Below are positions 48,549 through 59,613 of a stretch of DNA of 64,000 nt, one piece after another. Position numbers and translations under genes: made by a program. The notes below the pieces were generated by a model. It had not been told where the DNA came from. It did no database searches and saw nothing but the letters and a program-made list of their open reading frames with translations. Source of the DNA: Escherichia coli 042 (lineage in GTDB: Bacteria; Pseudomonadota; Gammaproteobacteria; Enterobacterales; Enterobacteriaceae); the NCBI RefSeq assembly GCF_000027125.1, contig NC_017626.1, one strand, 5' to 3'. Position 1 is the first letter of the stretch, and each line of letters starts with the position of its first letter.

Positions 48549-48800
48549 ATAAATCTCCATTTATCATTTATGTCGTAAATATGTAGTCCATGCAAAATAC
48601 GTCATTTGAAGCTGGCGTTATCATAATTGGGAATTTGCGACTTTAATAAGTGGAAGTGTGAGCGGAGCGAGCCATTTTATTAGGCATTTGTGCTGAAGAG
48701 GGAAAAGTACGCGAATTTATTATCTCTGTAAATAATATGAGGTATTTTATATATTTATTATATATATTGTACTTCGGCAAATACTGAGCACAATTAATCA

Positions 48801-49118
48801 ATGCAACCGGTGTTTCTTTTTAAAAAACGTACCGGAGCAATGGGCGGTCATGTCGCTGGCACCGCAGGATTCTGTGTTGCTGTGCCAACCTTTTATTCAT
48901 GGTCAATGAGTGAGGGGATTGATAAAGAAACCAGGTCGTCAGAGCGCACTGATTATCCGCATTACGCCAGTGACGTTGCACTGGCTTTTGGTTCACGAGT
49001 GGTTGGCCTCGAACTGGCAAAAATGATTGTGGATGCGTGGCTGGGCGCGCAGTACGAATGCGGTCGTCATCAACAACGCGTGGAGGCGATTACGGCAATA
49101 GAGCAGCGGAAAAATTGA
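48801..49118 (+). pseudogene. rpiB: Remnant of ribose-5-phosphate isomerase B: C-terminal RpiB-like blocks fused to unrelated 5' sequence; catalytic core missing
   Basis: Translation contains SSERTDYPHYAS and AFGSRVVGLELAKMIVDAWLGAQYE.GRHQQRVEAITAIEQR as recalled for RpiB, but lacks the Cys-containing central region and the native N-terminus; sits where alsK-alsB, rpiR and rpiB lie in K-12. Confidence 0.6.
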
Positions 49119-49516: not shown

Positions 49517-49550
49517 TGTTGAGTCTAGAGCAGGCATCGCCCCTCACCCA

Positions 49551-50321
49551 TCACTCCACCCCAATCTCCACCCCAATCTCCATCCCATCAAACCCCGCCT
49601 CAAACCCCGACGGCAGTGCGTTTTCCATCAGCCACGCATCAAACTGGTGGCTGATATGGGTCAGAATCACCCGTGGCGAGCGGATAACCTGATTCAGCGC
49701 AAGCACGGTATTTAAATCACAGTGATTACGCGGTGCATCCTCGCGCGGCGGGTGGCTGCAATCAATCACCATTACCTGTGGCTGATTATTGCGTAAAAAT
49801 TTCAGCGTTTTTTCCGGCAGGCCTGCGGTGTCAGACAGCCACGCCACCCGGCTATGTGCCGTTTCCAGTAAATAGCCGAAAGTGAGTTTCGAATGATTGA
49901 GCGGCAGCGGCGTGACCTGTAATCCCTGCAAATCAAACACTACAAACGGTTCCACCGTGTGGCTGAAATCAAGCAGGCCCGGATGTTTAAACAGATCGTC
50001 GCAGCCCTGTTCATCCGGCGGGCCGTAGACCGGGATCGAATCGCCCACGCCCCAGCGCAGCGGAAACAGCCCCTGCACGTGATCCATATGGTAGTGCGTC
50101 AGCAAAAACTGCTGGAACGATCCGGGCGACCAGCGATCGGCGAGATCGTGCAGCCCGGCGTCGATCAGGGTGATCGCGTCGTTAAACTTCACGACGCCGC
50201 TGCATGGCTGGCGGCGATACTGTGGTGAGCGCCGCGCTCTGACGCAGGCCGCGCACTCGCAGCCCCATGCCGGAACGCCCTGTGCGCCGCCGGTGCCGGT
50301 GAGCGTGAGGGTCAGACTCAT
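49551..50321 (-). CDS. phnP: Phosphoribosyl 1,2-cyclic phosphate phosphodiesterase PhnP (256 aa here)
   Basis: Metallo-beta-lactamase motif THYHMDH; C-terminus carries a 12-bp tandem duplication (EIGVEIGVE). Confidence 0.9.
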
Positions 50322-50322
50322 G

Positions 50323-50757
50323 TTACAGCGCCTTGGTGAAGCGGAAGTGACTCTGCTCGTAGCCTTCTCGCAGATAGAAACGGTGCGCGTCGTGGCGCTT
50401 CACGTTGGTCGAAAGCTCAGTCATTTCGGCCCCGGCCTGGCGGGCTTCTTCTTCTGCCCACGCCAGCAACTTGCTACCGACGTTCAGGCCGCGCGCCTGC
50501 GGCATCACCACCAACTCCTGAATTTCGCCGATCCAGTTGACATGATGCAGATGAAACTGCAAATGCAGGCCGATCATGCCGACAACTTCGCCATCCAGTA
50601 GCGCCAGATGGTAGCGCATGTTTGGGTCGCGCAGGTTGGCGTTAAAGCCCACGCGAAACGCGTGGTGGTCAAACTCCGCCTGTTTTAGCTCACAAATCAG
50701 CGCGTAAACTGCGTCGGTGTCGTACTGCGTAGCCGGGCGAAGCTCACAAGCAGGCAT
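50323..50757 (-). CDS. phnO: Aminoalkylphosphonate N-acetyltransferase PhnO (144 aa)
   Basis: GNAT-fold translation [34 protein letters not shown]... Confidence 0.9.
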
Positions 50758-51301
50758 GGTGTTTCTCCTTCTGATGAATCAGCGTCAGCAGCTTGTCGAC
50801 CGACTGGCGCAGGCTGCCGTCATTATTGAGCGTAAGACAATCCTGAGGAGTATAGCGGGCAGCGCGTGCCAGTCGGGCGTTAATTTCACTGGCATTTTCA
50901 CGACCACGGTTTTCGAGGCGCTGGCGCAGGATCTCCGGCGAAACCTGTAAACAAACGGGCAGCAGCGCCGATTGATAGCGCGCCCGCGCCTGCGGCAGAT
51001 GGGCGCGTGAGCCGTTGACCATCACGTCAAATCCAGCGTGCAGCCAGAGGTCAATCTCGACGCCGATGCCATAATACAGGCCGTTGGCGTGCCAGCTTAA
51101 GGCCAGAAGGTTCTGCCCCGCGCGGGTAAAAAACTCCTGCTCGCTCAGGGCGATATGGTTTTCACTTCCGGCGCTGGCGGCGCGCGTGATGTAGCGATGC
51201 GCTACCAGTAGCTGAGTTTGTTCCCGCTGGCGAAGTTCCGTCAACAGACTGTCTTTTCCGGAGCCAGAGGCCCCCATTAACCAAATCAGTTTTCCCGTCA
51301 T
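50744..51301 (-). CDS. phnN: Ribose 1,5-bisphosphate phosphokinase PhnN (185 aa)
   Basis: P-loop [12 protein letters not shown]; overlaps phnO. Confidence 0.9.
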
Positions 51302-52437
51302 CAGAACACCCTTTTACCCTGACGCCAGACGTGGTCGATATGAATGTGGTTGCCCTTGCGATGCGCCAGCACCAGGTCGGCGCGTTTGCCCTCGCCAATC
51401 ACCCCGCGATCCTGAAGATTAAGCGCCTGCGCCGGATTTTTAGTCACCAGCTTCACCGCCTGCGGCAGCGTAAAGCGGTTGCTCTCGTCATCGGCGACGC
51501 GAAATGCCGCATCGAGCAGGCTGGCGGGGTAGTAGTCGGAAGAGAGGATATCCAGCAGGCCAAGCTGCGCCAGTTCACTGGCCGCCACGTTGCCGGAGTG
51601 CGAACCGCCGCGCACGATATTCGGCGCGCCCATCAGCACGTTCATGCCATGCTTGCGCGAGGCTTCTGCCGCTTCGAACGTGGTGGGAAATTCGGCGATC
51701 ACGCTGCCAAGCTGGTGGGATTCGGCAACGTGCGCGTGCGTGGCGTCATCGTGGCTGGCGAGGGCAATGTGTCGCGCGCGGCACATTGCGGCGATGGTTT
51801 CGCGATTTGGCTGCGACCAGCGTGCGGCGAGCGCCAATTGCTCTTCTTCGTACTGCTGCATCTGCGCATCGGTGAGGGAATATTTGCCCTGATAATATTC
51901 GCGATACTTCTCGCGATTGGCGAACTGGCGCTGGCCTGGCGAGTGGTCCATCAGCGATACCAGCGTCACCGGTTCGCGCTGCACCAGTTTTTCAAACAGC
52001 GGCAACGTGGTGTGGTGCGGCAGTTCGCAGCGCAGGTGCAGGCGGTGCTCGGCGCGGTTGACGCCGCGTTTCTGCGTCTCTTCGATGGCGTTGATCATCT
52101 TCTCCAGATTCTCCAGCCGATCGCCGCCGTCGCGCACATCACCAATCGCCACGGCGTCCAGTACGGTGGTGATGCCGCTTGCCACCATCAGCGCGTCGTG
52201 GCTGCTCATCGCCGAATGGGCGGGCCAGTCGACTTTCGGGCGCGGGGTGAAGAATTTATCGAGGTTGTCGGTATGCAGCTCAATCAGGCCGGGTAGTAGC
52301 CAGCCACCTTCGCCGTCCATCGCTTCCGGCTGGCGGCTCTGGCTTTCGGCAAAGGCGCGAATTTCGCCATCCTGTACTTCCAGTGAACCGTGCACCACTT
52401 CGTTTTCCAGCACCAGTTTGACGTTATTGATAATCAT
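51301..52437 (-). CDS. phnM: RPnTP diphosphatase PhnM (amidohydrolase family, 378 aa)
   Basis: Translation [33 protein letters not shown]... Confidence 0.9.
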
Positions 52438-53114
52438 GAAGAGGCTCCCATCGGGTGCAGGCGGTCGGCGACGTCATTGCGTACGGCTTCGTCATGGAAG
52501 ATACCGACGATGGCTGCGCCACGGGCTTTAGCTTCGAGAATCAGTTCCACCACCGCGGCGCTGTTTTTGGCGTCCAGCGAGGCGGTAGGTTCGTCGAGCA
52601 GCAGAATGGGGTAGTCGACGATAAAGCCACGGGCGATGTTGACGCGCTGCTGTTCGCCGCCGGAGAAGGTCGATGGTGCAAGGTGCCACAGGCGTTCAGG
52701 CACGTTCAGGCGCGTCAGTAATCGGGCGGCTTTAGCGGCGCAGGCTTCACGCGGTACGCCGGTATCGAGCAGAGGCTGCATCACCACTTCCAGTGCCGAA
52801 ATACGCGGGATGACGCGCAGAAACTGGCTCACCCAGCCGATGGTGGTTTTGCGGATCTCCACCACTTTGCGGGCTGGCGCGGTGACCAGGTCTACCCATT
52901 CCTCACCGTGTTTGATCTGGATTTGCCCTTCGTCGGGCAGATAGTTGGCGTACAGCGAGCGCAGCAGGGTTGATTTTCCGCTGCCGGAGTGGCCGTGAAG
53001 CACCACGCATTCGCCTGCGTTGACGGTGAGCGAGGCACGTTGTAAGACGGGCAGGCGCACGCCGTTTTGCTGGTGCAGGATGAAGGTTTTACTGACGTTT
53101 TGTACGTTAATCAT
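52434..53114 (-). CDS. phnL: C-P lyase ABC-type ATPase PhnL (226 aa)
   Basis: Walker [13 protein letters not shown] (cat) at 53112..53114. Confidence 0.9.
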
Positions 53115-53147
53115 TTTTCGCCTCGTGGTTCGCATATTGGGGATCGG

Positions 53148-53220
53148 CGCGCGCATTGCCCCTCACCCTAGCCCTCTCCCCTCTGGGGAGAGGGCCGGGG
53201 TGAGGGGACCAGCGCGCACG
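53148..53220. repeat. GC-rich nested palindromic intergenic element between phnK and phnL (boxC-like)
   Basis: gcgcgc..cccctcaccc..ccctctcccc-tct-ggggagaggg..gggtgagggg..gcgcgc: perfect 10-bp inner stem nested in an outer stem. Confidence 0.7.
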
Positions 53221-53230
53221 GTGTTGCAAC

Positions 53231-53989
53231 TCAATTCTGCAAAACCGATGACACCAGCAGCTGGGTATACGGATGATGCGGGTCGTCGAGCACGCGGTCG
53301 GTTAACCCACTCTCCACTACTTGCCCCTGCTTCATCACCAGCAAACGGTCCGCCAGCAGGCGGGCGACGCCAAGATCGTGGGTAACAATCACTACCGCCA
53401 GGTTCAGCTCCACCACCAGGCCGCGCAGCAGGTCGAGCAGGCGCGCCTGCACCGACACATCCAGCCCGCCGGTTGGTTCGTCCATAAACACCAGCTTCGG
53501 ATGCGTCACCAGGTTGCGGGCAATCTGCAAACGCTGCTGCATGCCGCCGGAAAAGGTGGTTGGCAGGTCGTCGATCCGGTTAGCGGGAATCTCGACCTCT
53601 TCCAGCCACTTCTGCGCGGTGGCGCGAATATCGCCGTAATGACGCGCCCCGGTCGCCATCAGCCGCTCGCCGATATTGCCGCCTGCCGACACCTGGCGGC
53701 GCAGGCCGTCGAGCGGATGCTGATGCACCACGCCCCATTCGGTGCGCAGCAGGCGACGGCGATCGGCCTCGCTCATGCCATAGAGGGAACGGTTTTCATA
53801 GTGAATCTCCCCTTGCTGCGGCGTCAGACGCGCGGAAATTGATTTCAGCAGCGTGGTCTTCCCGGAGCCGGACTCCCCGACGATGCCCAGCACTTCCCCC
53901 GGCCATAAATCAAAAGAGACATCGCTAAAGCCTTTGCCCGGCGCGTAAAGGTGGGTCAGGTTATTGACCGAAAGTAAAGGTTGATTCAT
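53231..53989 (-). CDS. phnK: C-P lyase ABC-type ATPase PhnK (252 aa)
   Basis: Walker A GESGSGKTT; ATG (cat) at 53987..53989. Confidence 0.9.
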   Translation of the reverse strand: MNQPLLSVNNLTHLYAPGKGFSDVSFDLWPGEVLGIVGESGSGKTTLLKSISARLTPQQGEIHYENRSLYGMSEADRRRLLRTEWGVVHQHPLDGLRRQVSAGGNIGERLMATGARHYGDIRATAQKWLEEVEIPANRIDDLPTTFSGGMQQRLQIARNLVTHPKLVFMDEPTGGLDVSVQARLLDLLRGLVVELNLAVVIVTHDLGVARLLADRLLVMKQGQVVESGLTDRVLDDPHHPYTQLLVSSVLQN

Positions 53990-54831
53990 TGGTTTTTTGC
54001 CTCGCTCTGTTGGCGGCAATAATCGGTATCGGAGCAGACAAACATGCGGTTTCCGGCGTCATCCAGCACCACTTCGTCGAGATAGCTGTGGGTCGATCCG
54101 CAGATGGCGCATGGCTCATCCCACTGCTGAACGGTGAACGGGTGATCGTCGAAATCGAGGCTTTCCACGCGGGTAAACGGCGGCACCGCATAGATGCGCT
54201 TCTCGCGTCCTGCGCCGAACAGCTGCAGGGCGGGCATCATGTTCATTTTCGGATTATCGAATTTTGGGATCGGCGATGGGTCCATGACGTAGCGCCCGTT
54301 CACCTTCACCGGATAGGCATAAGTGGTGGCGATATGACCGAAGCGGGCGATATCTTCATACAGTTTCACCTGCATCACGCCGTACTCCTCCAGCGCGTGC
54401 ATAGTGCGGGTTTCCGTTTCGCGCGGCTCGATAAAGCGCAGCGGTTCCGGGATCGGTACCTGGAAAATAATGATCTGATCTTCGGTCAGCGACGTTTCGG
54501 GGATGCGGTGGCGGGTCTGGATAAGCGTCGCATCGTCCGTACGTTCAGTGGTGTTTACCCCGGTCACGCGCTTAAAGAAGTTGCGAATTGATACGGCGTT
54601 GGTGGTGTCATCCGCACCCTGGTCAATCACCTTCAACACGTCGCTTTCGCCAATCACGCTGGCGGTAAGCTGGATACCACCAGTTCCCCAGCCGTACGGC
54701 ATCGGCATCTCGCGCCCGCCAAACGGCACCTGATAACCGGGGATCGCCACCGCTTTTAAGATGGCGCGGCGGATCATGCGTTTGGTCTGCTCGTCGAGGT
54801 AGGCAAAGTTGTAGCCGCTCAGATTAGCCAT
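53986..54831 (-). CDS. phnJ: C-P lyase catalytic subunit PhnJ (radical SAM-like, 281 aa)
   Basis: Translation MANLSGYNFAYLDEQTKRMIRRAILKAVAIPGYQVPF...; C-terminal Cys cluster CAICGS..C..C. Confidence 0.9.
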   Translation of the reverse strand: MANLSGYNFAYLDEQTKRMIRRAILKAVAIPGYQVPFGGREMPMPYGWGTGGIQLTASVIGESDVLKVIDQGADDTTNAVSIRNFFKRVTGVNTTERTDDATLIQTRHRIPETSLTEDQIIIFQVPIPEPLRFIEPRETETRTMHALEEYGVMQVKLYEDIARFGHIATTYAYPVKVNGRYVMDPSPIPKFDNPKMNMMPALQLFGAGREKRIYAVPPFTRVESLDFDDHPFTVQQWDEPCAICGSTHSYLDEVVLDDAGNRMFVCSDTDYCRQQSEAKNQ

Positions 54832-55888
54832 GGTTCTGCTCCTGTTGCAGACGTTTGAGTAGCTCCAGTTCGGCCTGGAAATCGACGTAGTGCGGGAGTT
54901 TAAGGTGCGAGACAAAGCCTGCGGCTTCGACGTTGTCGGCATGCGCCAGCACGAACTCTTCATCCTGCGCCGGGCCTGTCGCGTGCTCGCCGTACTCCGG
55001 GGCTTGTAGAGCGCGGTCAACCAGCGCCATCGCCATCGCTTTGCGCTCGCTCATGCCGAACACCAGCCCGTAGCCGCGCGTGAAGTGCGGCGGCTCATCC
55101 GGCGGGTCGATAAAACCGTTGACCATTTCACATTCGGTCATCAGCAGTTCGCCGACGTTCACCGCAAATCCCAGCTCTTCCGGCACAATCGACACGTCGA
55201 TATAGCCGCTGCGGATTTCGCCTGCGAACGGATGATTGCGTCCGTAACCACGCTGGGTGGAGTAGGCCAGCGCCAGCAAATAGCCTTCGTCGCCGCGCAT
55301 TAATTGTTGCAGGCGGGAGGAGCGTGAGCAGGGGTAAACCGGCGGCGTGCGGGTGATGTCATCCGGCTGTGCGCCGCTATCCTCCTCAAACTTCGCCAGC
55401 CCCTGACGCGCCAGCAGGCTGAAAACGTGCGGCGACGGCTGTTGTGCGCTGTCGGCGGTGGTCAGCGTCGGCGCTTCGCCGTTTGCCAGCAGGGTGAAAT
55501 CGAGCAGGCGATGGGTGTAGTCGTAGGTTGGGCCAAGCAGCTGGCCGCCGGGAATATCTTTATAAACCGCTGAAATACGCCGTTCGAGACGCATCTCCGT
55601 GGTGTCGAGCGGCTCGCTTACCGCGAGCTTAGCCAGCGTGGTGCGGTAAGCGCGTAGCAGGAAAATCGCTTCGACGTTATCGCCGCTGGCCTGTTTCAGC
55701 GCCAGCGCCGCCAGTTCGCGGTCGGCAATGCCGCCTTCGGTCATCACGCGATCTACTGCAAGATTAAGCTGCTGTTCAATCTGGGCGACGCTCAGTTCAG
55801 GCAAATCGGTATTGCCCCGGCGTCGGCTCTCTTGCAGGGCGTGGGCGGCGTCGATCGCCTTCTCGCCCCCTTTCACGGCAACGTACAT
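54824..55888 (-). CDS. phnI: C-P lyase core subunit PhnI (354 aa)
   Basis: Translation [41 protein letters not shown]... Confidence 0.9.
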   Translation of the reverse strand: MYVAVKGGEKAIDAAHALQESRRRGNTDLPELSVAQIEQQLNLAVDRVMTEGGIADRELAALALKQASGDNVEAIFLLRAYRTTLAKLAVSEPLDTTEMRLERRISAVYKDIPGGQLLGPTYDYTHRLLDFTLLANGEAPTLTTADSAQQPSPHVFSLLARQGLAKFEEDSGAQPDDITRTPPVYPCSRSSRLQQLMRGDEGYLLALAYSTQRGYGRNHPFAGEIRSGYIDVSIVPEELGFAVNVGELLMTECEMVNGFIDPPDEPPHFTRGYGLVFGMSERKAMAMALVDRALQAPEYGEHATGPAQDEEFVLAHADNVEAAGFVSHLKLPHYVDFQAELELLKRLQQEQNHG

Positions 55889-56472
55889 CAGCACACCTCC
55901 ACATGAGTGGTTCGCGGGATAGCCAGCAGCCGCTCGCCGCAGGTCAGGATCAGGTCGATGCCGAGCGGGAACGGGTGCGGGCGCTCGGTAAGTTCGTGCA
56001 GAATGCACTCCGGCAGCTGCGGGGCGATCATTCGTTCTTCGGCAATACCCGCGCCAGTAAGGCGCAGCATGCGCCCGCCGCTCAGGCTGACGACCTGTAA
56101 AATCAGCGTCGCGCCCGCTTCTGGCGCAACAGCGGTGCCGCTGGAAAGGGCGTTAAGCTGTTCGCTGGAAATCGCCTCATCCGTTACCGCGAAGGTCGCC
56201 TGTTCCGGCTGGCTGACCAGCGGCGCGTTGGTATGAAAACGCAGGCTCTGGCTGACGATATCGTTACTTAATGGCGCAGAAAGCCACACCGGCGTGTCGT
56301 TATCGGCCAGCGTCAGCAGCACGCTGGTGGTGGCGATATTCAGTGGCTGCCAGCCGCGCTTGAGCTGATGCAGGGCGACAATCACGCCCGGCTCGCTCAT
56401 GGCCTTTAACAGGCGACGAAAACTGTGCTGGGCATCCTGCACGGGAAGCATAAAAGCGGTTTCCAGGGTCAT
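55888..56472 (-). CDS. phnH: C-P lyase core subunit PhnH (194 aa)
   Basis: Translation [34 protein letters not shown]... Confidence 0.9.
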
Positions 56473-56921
56473 GCGTTATCTCCGCGAACCATCGTAAAGA
56501 AGTCGACCCGGCTGGCGTTCACTTCGGCCTGGCGTGCGGCAATGCGTGCCATACGGTCAGCGTCCAGCGGGGCAATAAGGGTTTCTGATAAGTTTTGAAA
56601 ATGGCGGGTTTGCTGCATCAGCGCGTCAATCAGCGCGCAGCGTTCGGCGTGCTGTTTGTCGCGCCCCAGCACCCAGCTGTAGCCGAGCGTGCCGTCAGTC
56701 AGGCGTACGGTGGCGCGGGTGAGCGTGGCGTCGCCAGCAAAAAAGCGTTCGCCGGTGCCACCCATCCGCGCCTGAATCTGCACCAGGCCGGTTTCAGCGG
56801 CGCGGATTACTTCATAGTCGGCAGTGATGTTCAGCGCCTTCAGGCGGGCTGCCAGTTCAGCCGGTTGGCTGTGTGCCAGTACGGACATCCAGTGCTGGCG
56901 GGTCGCGGTATCTGCGTGCAT
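56469..56921 (-). CDS. phnG: C-P lyase core subunit PhnG (150 aa)
   Basis: Translation [32 protein letters not shown]... Confidence 0.9.
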
Positions 56922-57647
56922 TCAGTGCTCCATAGTGAATTCAATCATGTCGGCGCGCGTCAGGCTGACGGAGTACTCCGCCGGGCTGCTTTCACCGTCA
57001 CGGTGGTTAAGGGTGCGCACGCACAGCAGCGGCGACATATTCGGGATTTCAAGACGCTGGCACTCTTTGGCCTGGGCGCGGCGGGCGCTGATCCGCGTCT
57101 GGCTGCGGCGCAGCGCAATCCCCGTTTGCTCGCGCAGAAAATCGTGCAGCGAGCCGCTGTCGAAGCGTTGCAGCGTCGGCCAGAGGGTGAGGTCCGCAAA
57201 GTAGTGGTCGATTAAACAGAGCGCGACGCCGTTGACCCGGCGCAGGGTGCGCAGGTGGATAACGTTCTCGCCCTCGGTTATCCCCAGCGCGTCAGCGACG
57301 TGACCGGAGGCCGGGCGCAGCACCGACAGCAGTTTTTCGCTGGTGGGATGGCTGCCCTGATCCAGCAGGTTCTGGCTAAAACGCGCCTGGGCGTTGAGCG
57401 GGTAATCGAACGGGCGCATCAGTACCAGCACGCCGACGCCCTGACGGCGCTGTACCCAGCCTTTTTCCACCAGTTGGTCGATGGCGCGGCGCAGGGTGTG
57501 GCGGTTCACCTCAAAGCGCGCCGCCAGTTGCTGCTCGGCGGGAAGATAGTCGCCGCAGCGGTAGTGTTGACGAAGCTCCTGCTCAAGTTTTGCGGCTATC
57601 TCCTGATAGCGTGTTGGGTAGCTGGTCGGATGTGTAGACAAGTGCAT
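56922..57647 (-). CDS. phnF: GntR-family repressor PhnF (241 aa)
   Basis: N-terminal winged HTH, UTRA-like C-terminus; ATG (cat) at 57645..57647. Confidence 0.88.
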   Translation of the reverse strand: MHLSTHPTSYPTRYQEIAAKLEQELRQHYRCGDYLPAEQQLAARFEVNRHTLRRAIDQLVEKGWVQRRQGVGVLVLMRPFDYPLNAQARFSQNLLDQGSHPTSEKLLSVLRPASGHVADALGITEGENVIHLRTLRRVNGVALCLIDHYFADLTLWPTLQRFDSGSLHDFLREQTGIALRRSQTRISARRAQAKECQRLEIPNMSPLLCVRTLNHRDGESSPAEYSVSLTRADMIEFTMEH

Positions 57648-57667
57648 AGATATCAATGCCTCGCTTA

Positions 57668-58447
57668 TCAGATAAAGTGCTTACGCAACCGTTGAGAGAG
57701 GAAATCCAGCAGGCTGACCGTGACGATAATCAGCACCATCAGGGCGCAGGTTTGCTGGAACTGGAAACCGCGAATCGCTTCCCACAGCGTGACGCCGATC
57801 CCGCCCGCGCCGACCATGCCAACAACGGTGGCCGAACGGACGTTGGATTCGAAGCGATAGAGGGAGTAGGAGATCAGCAGCGGCATCACCTGCGGCAGCA
57901 CGCCGTAGAGGATCTCTTCGAGCTTGTTGGCACCGGTGGCGCGAATACCTTCCACCGGGCCGGGTTCAATTGCTTCTACCGCTTCGGAAAGCAGTTTGGA
58001 GAGCACGCCGGTGGTGTGGATAAACAGCGCCAGCACGCCAGCGAACGGGCCAAGGCCGACGGCGACCACGAACAGCATGGCGAAGACCATTTCGTTAATG
58101 GCGCGGCAGGCGTCCATCAGGCGGCGTACGGGCTGGTAAACCCACCACGGCACCAGGTTTTCGGCGCTCATCAGACCGAAGGGGATGGAGAGAACCACCG
58201 CCAGCGCGGTGCCCCAGACGGCGATTTGCAGCGTGACGGCCATTTCGGTGAGGTAATCCTGCCACTGGCTGAAATCGGGCGGGAAGAAGTCGGCGGCGAA
58301 GGTTGCCATGTTGCCGCCGTCTTTAATCAGCGTGAGCGGGGCCATTTCCGCGCCCTGCCACGAGACGACCAGCACGGCGAGAACAATGGCCCAGCTCAGA
58401 AGCGAGAACCAGCTGCGCTTGGGTGGGGCGATGGTGATGGTTTGCAT
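57668..58447 (-). CDS. phnE: Phosphonate ABC transporter permease PhnE, intact (259 aa)
   Basis: Single uninterrupted ORF with multiple TM segments; this gene is frameshifted in K-12. Confidence 0.9.
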
Positions 58448-58464
58448 GTTTGGCTCCGTTTAAT

Positions 58465-58562
58465 GTTTTCTCCCTCTCCCTGTGGGAGAGGGCCGGGGTG
58501 AGGGCATCAGCGTGCGCATTTTCCCCTCATCCTAACCCTCTCCCTCAAGGGAGAGGGGACCG
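58465..58562. repeat. GC-rich double-hairpin palindromic element between phnD and phnE (boxC-like)
   Basis: ccctctccc-tgt-gggagaggg..ccggggtgaggg ... tcccctcatcc..ccctctccc-tcaa-gggagagggg; same motif family as the element at 53148..53220. Confidence 0.7.
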
Positions 58563-58572
58563 ATCGAGCACA

Positions 58573-59589
58573 TTACTGCACCGCTTTACTCACCGAACTC
58601 ATCGCGCTTAACGCGTTGTTCAGGCGGTCCAGGTCATCCAGTTGCGCCTGAATGGCGCTGGTTTTTGCCAGCTTGTCCTGCTCATTCAGCCCTTTATTAC
58701 CTTTTACGCCCTGCATCTCTTTAAACAGTGCGAGTTGGCGAATCGGCACCAGTTGCAGGTCGCTGGAGGCGCGGAACGGGGCCCATCCCAGGCGCTCCAG
58801 CACCGCTTTCTCTTCCGGCGTTTTGCCGTAGTTCATAAAGAAGTCGTAGATCTTGTCTTTGGTGGTTTCGGACAGATTTTTGCGCCAGACGATCGGATCG
58901 CCTGGGATCAGCGGCGATTTCCAGATCACCTTCAGTTCTTTGAGCTTCTCCGGTGCGGAGGTTTTCAGCTTGTCGAGGTTTTCGGTGTTGTTGGTCGCCA
59001 CATCCACCTGTTTGTTGGCGACGGCCAGCGCGTTGGTTTCATGCCCGGCGTTGACGGTGCGCTTGAAGTCGCTGGCGGAGATATTGTTTTTGGCGAAGAC
59101 GTAGTAGCCGGGGACGAGGAAGCCAGAGGTGGAGTTAGGATCGCCATTGCCGAAGGTGAGATCTTTACGCTTCGCCAGCAGATCATTCAGGTTGTTGATC
59201 GGACTGTCTTTGTTGACGATCAACACGCTCCAGTAACCCGGCGATCCATCCGCCGCGACCGTCTGGGCGAAGACCTGACCGTTGGCGCGATCCACCGCTT
59301 CCATCGCCGACAGATTGCCGTACCAGGCGATATCCACTTTATTGAAGCGCATCCCCTGGATAATGCCCGCGTAGTCCGGGGCAAAGAAGGCGTTGACCTT
59401 TACGCCCAGCTTCTTCTCCATATCCTGTAAGAACGGAGTCCATTGCGGTTTCAGGTTTTGCTGTGATTCCGTTGAAATAATGCCGAAATTCAGCGCCTTT
59501 TCCTGCTCTTCGGCGTGCGCCGGGCTTAACAGGGTGCTGAGGCTGAACATGCTGGTGAAGGCCAGCGAGGCAATTATCTTAGCATTCAT
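58573..59589 (-). CDS. phnD: Periplasmic phosphonate-binding protein PhnD (338 aa)
   Basis: Signal peptide MNAKIIASLAFTSMFSLSTLLSPAHA, substrate-binding fold. Confidence 0.92.
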   Translation of the reverse strand: MNAKIIASLAFTSMFSLSTLLSPAHAEEQEKALNFGIISTESQQNLKPQWTPFLQDMEKKLGVKVNAFFAPDYAGIIQGMRFNKVDIAWYGNLSAMEAVDRANGQVFAQTVAADGSPGYWSVLIVNKDSPINNLNDLLAKRKDLTFGNGDPNSTSGFLVPGYYVFAKNNISASDFKRTVNAGHETNALAVANKQVDVATNNTENLDKLKTSAPEKLKELKVIWKSPLIPGDPIVWRKNLSETTKDKIYDFFMNYGKTPEEKAVLERLGWAPFRASSDLQLVPIRQLALFKEMQGVKGNKGLNEQDKLAKTSAIQAQLDDLDRLNNALSAMSSVSKAVQ

Positions 59590-59613
59590 TCGTTTTCCTC
59601 AATGATGGGGATG

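Follow-up and report, generated by a model that had tools for sequence, protein, structure and literature searches.

The phn operon of Escherichia coli 042 carries a GC-rich nested palindrome in the gap between phnK and phnL, where the neighbouring genes of the operon overlap. The question raised by this locus is what such a palindrome does there, and where it came from. A first-pass annotation of the 64,000-nt stretch of contig NC_017626.1 that was analysed (hereafter, the window) had described a very stable stem-loop on the polycistronic mRNA, which could act as an RNase barrier or an attenuator, and had likened the sequence to BoxC-type repeats rather than to REP.

The palindrome and its predicted fold

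The phn operon occupies the minus strand of the window. Annotation and sequence place the phnK stop codon (TGA) at 53231-53233. The phnL start codon (ATG, 53114-53112) is preceded by a Shine-Dalgarno sequence, GAGG, at 53124-53121, with a 6-nt spacer between the two, and this stretch (53112-53124, minus strand) is conserved in all alleles. The gap from the phnK stop to the phnL ATG is therefore 116 nt, while the junctions on either side are overlaps of 4 nt each (phnJ/phnK at 53986-53989, phnL/phnM at 52434-52437). In these respects the setting is as had been described, and the assignment of the palindrome to an intercistronic site on a polycistronic phn mRNA is supported. The element is wholly intergenic, no part of it reaching the stop codon of phnK (53231-53233) or the start codon of phnL (53112-53114).

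The whole element, as delimited from the sequence, an inverted-repeat search, and RNA and DNA folds, extends over positions 53147-53219, within 1 nt of the limits given in the first-pass annotation, and the inner stem, the outer stem and the GC flanks reported there were all found. It is built in three tiers. The outermost consists of two GC tails, which read gcgcgcgc (53147-53154) and gcgcgcac (53212-53219) on the plus strand and pair with each other on the mRNA through 8 pairs, one of which is G-U. Within them lies an outer stem, with cccctcaccc (53159-53168) as its 5' arm and gggtgagggg (53198-53207) as its 3' arm. The innermost tier is the hairpin ccctctcccc-tct-ggggagaggg (53172-53194, plus strand), whose arms are at 53172-53181 and 53185-53194 and whose tct loop is at 53182-53184. 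The inverted-repeat search returned arms of 33 nt each (53149-53181 and 53185-53217), 82% complementary and spaced by 3 nt. The stems are invariant across alleles and so provide no covariation signal.

Folding was computed with Watson-Crick pairing only. The whole gap, folded as mRNA (minus strand), gave -69.4 kcal/mol, compared with -44.2 +/- 3.7 kcal/mol for 200 dinucleotide shuffles (z = -6.8), none of which folded as well. The plus-strand RNA of the gap gave -73.7 kcal/mol (z = -6.8), and the gap as single-stranded DNA gave -35.3 kcal/mol (z = -7.0). The very stable stem-loop that had been proposed is thus matched by a strong predicted Watson-Crick fold; the triplex and G-quadruplex structures reported in vitro are those of family oligonucleotides (PMC4666352, PMC5100583). 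In shuffles of the window, the chance expectation was 0.00 for the inner hairpin pattern and likewise 0.00 for the family consensus introduced below. A chance palindrome is ruled out by these expectations and by the z-scores of the folds. On the mRNA, the predicted hairpin begins with the right GC tail, 11 nt beyond the phnK stop codon, and 32 nt separate its end from the phnL AUG. The stretch from the phnL Shine-Dalgarno sequence to the AUG is predicted to be mostly unpaired (mean P(unpaired) 0.85), as it is in every allele.

Like intrinsic terminators and stabiliser hairpins (e.g. the malE-malF REP), the element is a GC-rich stem-loop 3' of a stop codon within an operon, but it differs in having no U-tract: the sequence 3' of the stem is CGAUCCCCAAUAUG. 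A terminator scan of positions 52800-53500 found no terminator-like site on either strand. An Rfam scan of positions 52000-54500 at permissive thresholds returned only miRNA-precursor hairpin models, all of them sub-threshold (22-30 bits versus gathering thresholds of 55-100).

An in-frame minus-strand ATG inside the palindrome (53154-53156) lengthens the phnL open reading frame to 240 aa (52434-53156). Since this ATG has no Shine-Dalgarno sequence and is part of the stem, automatic gene calling might wrongly place the start codon here, and the ATG at 53156 should not be annotated as the start of phnL.

Family membership and other copies

The repeat named BoxC in the 1990s was later called the PIT element, the name used by Hoyne and Maher, and later still TMECO (Holder et al. 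2015, PMC4666352); it was also re-described as the HPG1/HPG2 G-quadruplex motifs (Kaplan et al. 2016, PMC5100583). The TMECO consensus is CCCTCNCCC-N3-6-GGGNGAGGG-N3-GGGNGAGGG, and its types are told apart by the second loop, which is TTA in type A and CCG in type B. E. coli K-12 has 23 copies, which are always intergenic. Five inverted A+B pairs have been described, as has a "palindrome effect", in which partial deletion of an inverted pair leaves a stable hairpin (PMC4666352).

At phnK-phnL, exact matches to this consensus were found on both strands. The plus strand carries a type B unit at 53172-53206, with CCG as the second loop and the gggtgagggg arm of the outer stem as its third block. 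The unit on the minus strand (53160-53194) has the inner hairpin in common with the first, and its second loop, CTA, is one substitution away from the TTA of type A; the IAI39 orthologue reads TTA. Because both strands match the consensus, the nested palindrome (53147-53219) is a fusion of two BoxC units in inverted orientation, with one central hairpin common to both. Its GCGCGC flanks are the usual tails of BoxC units, the left one belonging to the minus-strand unit and the right one to the plus-strand unit, and an identical tail stands after the BoxC at K-12 yjdP-phnP. Positions 53172-53207 are identical to TMECO #261 of E. coli IAI39, and both TMECO #260 and #261 of that strain fall in its phnK-phnL gap (4726243-4726208 and 4726283-4726318; Supplementary Table S8, PMC4666352).

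Judged by its sequence, the phnK-phnL palindrome is a copy of the already known BoxC (PIT/TMECO) repeat family of E. coli, so that the BoxC-type reading of the first-pass annotation stands. It shares with the family the consensus on both strands, the CCG loop of type B, the GCGCGC tail and the intergenic position. It also shares the inverted A+B pair, which is present at the orthologous IAI39 locus, and the partial deletion of the pair to a hairpin, which corresponds to the palindrome effect. The difference is one of allele only: one hairpin stands for two inverted units in a fully symmetric four-block palindrome, and the loop on the type A side is CTA, not TTA. Earlier publications already cover the BoxC family, the inverted pairs, the way these collapse to hairpins, and the phnK-phnL locus itself. 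The motif also recurs, as had been foreseen, both at a second site in the window and elsewhere, with 23,853 BLAST places in 4,423 E. coli genomes (a median of 6 per genome).

The REP consensus was not found at the phnK-phnL junction of the window, and alignment revealed no homology to the BIME spacers that K-12 and SCU-109 have between the conserved flanks. There is nevertheless a likeness to REP/BIME, in that K-12 and the other non-BoxC strains checked have a BIME in the same stop-codon-to-RBS spacer, and in both cases an intercistronic hairpin of comparable stability lies near the upstream stop codon. By analogy, REP/BIME would be the best model for possible effects of the hairpin on mRNA decay and translation at this junction. 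BoxC is, however, unrelated to REP in sequence and lacks its consensus, and the homopurine/homopyrimidine BoxC arms make triplex and G4 structures possible, unlike REP/BIME. BoxC is a low-copy family, with tens of copies per genome, whereas REP elements number hundreds per genome. We know of no cognate RAYT-type transposase for BoxC.

A second BoxC site in the window lies in the 125-nt phnD-phnE gap (58448-58572), where an inverted pair at 58472-58557 is made up of a type B unit on the plus strand (58472-58504) and a type-A-like unit on the minus strand (ca. 58523-58557). At the identical position K-12 has a BIME, and IAI39 has a single-hairpin remnant. The pair allele was present in 359 of 5426 complete E. 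coli genomes and was not strictly linked to the phnK-phnL allele. Just downstream of phnP, a single remnant block on the minus strand, GGGTGAGGG (CCCCTCACCC), was found at 49541-49549 (within 49534-49554); the remnant in IAI39 is the same, and K-12 has a full BoxC at this site (TMECO #22, yjdP-phnP). All ten 9-nt GGGNGAGGG blocks of the 64-kb window (49541-58557) fall at these three intergenic phn sites, with about 1.1 blocks expected by chance. Given a family of roughly 20-30 copies per genome, this is a marked local clustering of BoxC blocks at phn.

Outside the operon, K-12, IAI39 and KK19-02 have the alsRBACEK operon and the 5' part of rpiB between yjcS and yjdP. Both are missing from the window, where about 208 nt of unmatched sequence stands at the junction (ca. 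48773-48980).

Beyond E. coli, the exact 47-nt four-block palindrome CCCTCACCC-N3-CCCTCTCCCC-N3-GGGGAGAGGG-N3-GGGTGAGGG was present in at least 120 environmental contigs (L106-L225; e.g. positions 6426-6472 of L147). Most of these contigs have a GC content of 0.43-0.50 and AT-rich sequence around the palindrome; many are multi-copy, and in many the palindrome has a common larger MITE-like flank. A RibBA encoded on one of them shares about 91% identity with proteins from MAGs of Desulfobacterota/Deltaproteobacteria. The phn allele itself was not among the matches listed in the metagenome search for the 47-nt palindrome. The environmental contigs indicate that the blocks are conserved well outside the Enterobacteria.

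Alleles of the junction and origin of the gap

A BoxC allele was found at phnK-phnL in 543-544 of the 5426 complete E. coli genomes (about 10%). Every such hit among the matches listed was multi-hairpin, matching in two pieces, and none of the matches listed in complete E. coli genomes was the single-piece match of the 51-nt allele described below. In K-12, SCU-109, KK19-02 and all contigs sampled that had other phn alleles, a REP pair (BIME) was found at the same place instead. The BIME and BoxC alleles have conserved flanks, with the stop codon on one side and the phnL Shine-Dalgarno sequence on the other. Hairpins of -61 to -156 kcal/mol are predicted for the two kinds of allele, the phnL Shine-Dalgarno sequence being free in both; the predicted fold of the BIME allele (-60.7 kcal/mol) is nearly as strong as that of the BoxC allele.

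In the spacers compared, all read in mRNA sense, the phnK-phnL gap measured 51 nt with no hairpin unit (L091, L226), 116 nt with one (the window), 176-178 nt with two (TCM3e1, IAI39), 242 nt with three (CFSAN018748) and 298 nt with four (L005, QNRL01000011.1). An assembly artefact is ruled out for the window allele, since contigs with the exact PhnJ protein of the window have the identical 116-nt spacer in three independent sources, namely the complete chromosome LR134246.1, a metagenome scaffold from ENA, and GCA_052079445.1, to which 19 similar places can be added. Assembly GCA_034324505.1 has the same haplotype, with flanks 99.9% identical and a spacer of 51 nt, the whole palindrome being gone between GGTCCCC and GATCCCC.

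Two of these records call for separate comment. In LR134246.1 (L229, positions 3018-3446), phnL is called as two short fragments, of 70 aa and 89 aa, and the alignment with the window is broken by two gaps, for which frameshifts or indel errors in long reads could account. The four-hairpin BoxC array (positions 7757-8057 of L005, in its 298-nt gap) comes from a record labelled Pseudocitrobacter faecalis DSM 27453, in which the phnD-phnE gap is 251 nt. The phn operon DNA of this record is 92-94% identical to the window, as close as that of some E. coli, and either the operon was transferred or the label of the record deserves checking.

Relative to the IAI39 allele, that of the window lacks 62 nt (the spacer and the second hairpin) and has a TTA to CTA substitution in the loop, the two being otherwise equal. 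The 62 nt are missing at a 10-nt direct repeat, GGGGAGAGGG, which is the ggggagaggg arm of the inner hairpin. In the two-hairpin allele, the spacer is akin to that of the BoxC at K-12 yjdP-phnP and is therefore a family sequence; it follows that the two-hairpin form is not a duplication of the one-hairpin form. Deletion from two hairpins to one would be the parsimonious direction, an argument from parsimony and not from a rooted phylogeny.

In a survey of species representatives, the phnK-phnL gap had a median of 24 nt and was 35 nt or less in 54 of 80 species among the matches listed. These matches contained no named Escherichia species, E. albertii, E. fergusonii and E. marmotae included, beyond the record labelled Pseudocitrobacter faecalis. 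In the insert-free relatives Citrobacter sp. FP75, Leclercia and an Enterobacter MAG, the gap is only 7-9 nt and reads stop-GAGGC.AAC-ATG. Where long gaps occur elsewhere, they usually hold the genus's own REP-type palindrome, as in Enterobacter, Pluralibacter, Citrobacter werkmanii, Kluyvera, Cedecea and Pseudomonas/Stutzerimonas. These genus-specific REP/BIME hairpins comprise one to three units with predicted energies of -20 to -99 kcal/mol (gaps read in L007, L009, L010, L011, L014, L017, L031, L051, L052, L057, L060 and L077), and sister taxa have gaps of 7-20 nt. Since the spacer is short in insert-free relatives and occupied by repeats where it is long, the 116-nt gap arose when a repeat was inserted into what had been a short coupling spacer. 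On this comparison of junctions, it is not a pre-existing regulatory spacer but one made by the inserted repeat.

Non-overlapping junctions of the operon differ in this respect. In Enterobacterales, gaps longer than 45 nt were found in 16 of 16 cases at phnD-phnE and 12 of 32 at phnK-phnL, versus 1 of 15 at phnC-phnD and 2 of 10 at phnE-phnF, the last two being likewise non-overlapping; the counts are phylogenetically non-independent. The phn operon of the window (49551-60402) is itself a mosaic, with gene-by-gene identities of 93-99.7% to K-12, IAI39 and KK19-02 and a best donor that shifts along the operon. The 30-46 kb stretch of the window is 99.5% identical to some E. coli genomes.

Possible effects on DNA and mRNA

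The explanation that we hold to be highly probable is that the element is a BoxC copy, derived from a two-hairpin pair and tolerated as structured repeat DNA. BoxC would have entered the operon at one of its few non-overlapping junctions, in the short stretch that separates the phnK stop codon from the ribosome-binding site of phnL. The two-hairpin inverted pair carried by about 10% of E. coli genomes would be the source, and one 62-nt unit (spacer and hairpin) would have been lost between the GGGGAGAGGG direct repeats, with recombination or replication slippage as the likeliest route. The result may best be read as structured, recombination-prone repeat DNA, presumably tolerated because it is no terminator and leaves the phnL Shine-Dalgarno sequence and AUG unpaired. 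On the phn mRNA it would form a hairpin of roughly -60 to -70 kcal/mol, starting 11 nt past the phnK stop. As by-products, translation of phnK and phnL should be uncoupled, and 3'-to-5' exonucleases could be slowed, as they are by REP hairpins. One observation counts against a mere passenger: nearly all complete E. coli genomes have a strong palindrome, whether BIME or BoxC, at the junction, a pattern that could equally come from selection for a hairpin.

One rival places the main effect in the DNA. As proposed for TMECO, the purine and pyrimidine blocks would form an intrastrand triplex, a G-quadruplex or a cruciform, stall replication and so make the site a rearrangement hotspot. We regard this as a serious possibility that falls short of being probable. 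A three-block triplex motif is present on both strands, and the 3' half, GGGGAGAGGGCCGGGGTGAGGGG, reads as a canonical motif of four G-runs. Family oligonucleotides form triplex and G4 in vitro, and TMECO loci are unusually variable between strains (PMC4666352, PMC5100583). The variation in unit number at phnK-phnL, with deletions ending in short direct repeats, fits such a hotspot, as does the same kind of series at the phnD-phnE site and downstream of phnP; deletions between 7-10-nt direct repeats within tandem or inverted repeats, however, need no exotic structure. In vivo DMS footprinting gave no support to a stable triplex (PMC4666352), with which the full Watson-Crick hairpin or cruciform of the four-block form would, moreover, be expected to compete.

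A role of the hairpin as an RNase barrier or attenuator, as suggested in the first-pass annotation, is physically plausible from the modelled fold. It is rather unlikely, in our estimate, that an intercistronic RNA hairpin was selected here, which as a 3'-exonuclease barrier or partial attenuator would keep the phnC-K message or the PhnGHIJK protein above phnL-P, the identity of the repeat being irrelevant. The near-universal presence of some palindrome at phnK-phnL in E. coli speaks for it, as do the stability of BoxC and BIME alleles alike with the Shine-Dalgarno sequence free, and the unrelated palindrome families that occupy the same junction in Enterobacter and the other genera named above. 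Long gaps at phnD-phnE and phnK-phnL rather than at phnC-phnD and phnE-phnF point the same way, but the non-independence of these counts weakens the argument. The short gaps of most species listed, and the hairpin-free 7-9 nt of close relatives, tell against selection, as do a natural isolate of the same haplotype that has no palindrome (GCA_034324505.1) and a unit number that varies from 0 to 4.

Among published data, those in favour include RNA-seq coverage of K-12, which falls along the phn operon, with phnCDE and phnGHIJK sub-transcripts (PMC3734233), but these data concern the BIME allele and are not mapped to the repeat. According to the account of Liang et al. 2015 given in PMC12306157, REPs stabilise upstream mRNA and depress translation when they lie within 15 nt of the stop codon; the stem here, at 11 nt, is inside that limit of less than 16 nt. 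As summarised in PMC4666352, experiments on the BoxC family point the other way, having detected neither promoter nor terminator activity and no influence on RNA polymerase. That the hairpin itself is useful, so that BoxC, BIME and genus-specific REPs were fixed independently at both phnK-phnL and phnD-phnE, we consider a tentative and unlikely extension of this idea.

The BoxC cluster could also be taken for a non-autonomous, MITE-like mobile element that inserts into stop-codon-to-RBS spacers or REP/BIME-occupied sites, which would explain the alternation of BoxC and BIME at identical positions; we think this very improbable. Like a MITE, the BoxC composite is small, non-coding and multi-copy, with terminal inverted repeats, a conserved internal spacer and presence/absence polymorphism. 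The composite of unit, conserved spacer and inverted unit is present at more than one locus, the spacers being related, BoxC and BIME alternate at two junctions of one operon in combinations that are not strictly linked, all ten 9-nt blocks of the window lie in the phn locus, and the 47-nt palindrome is embedded in a larger common repeat in many environmental contigs. Unlike a MITE, BoxC has no recognisable target-site duplication, known partner transposase or evidence of recent transposition. Inverted terminal units are present, but BoxC and BIME alleles differ over the entire spacer, so that any duplication escapes recognition, and Escherichia offered no true empty site. The alternation could also stem from independent insertions and subsequent homologous recombination within a mosaic operon. 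To our knowledge, no transposase acts on the BoxC family. It has been reported to be unassociated with mobile elements (PMC4666352).

Finally, an intrinsic (Rho-independent) terminator ending the phnC-K transcript, which a GC-rich hairpin directly downstream of a stop codon might suggest, is rejected as contradicted by the sequence (no T-run after the stem on the minus strand and no terminator-like site in 52800-53500), the downstream genes phnL and phnM being required for C-P lyase activity (PMC3734233) and the BoxC family showing no terminator activity in the experiments summarised in PMC4666352.

In annotation, the proper label for the element is BoxC/TMECO repeat and not new regulatory RNA. 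If the hairpin did prove useful, it would uncouple translation and shield the upstream message, setting how much binding protein is made relative to permease and how much PhnGHIJK core relative to PhnL-P; the unit of selection would then be the hairpin and not the repeat, and repeat families would be interchangeable raw material. The phn junction, found with 0, 1, 2, 3 or 4 BoxC hairpins or with a BIME on similar backgrounds, is a compact natural experiment, and its allelic series offers ready-made alleles for asking whether BoxC affects the mRNA or only destabilises the DNA.
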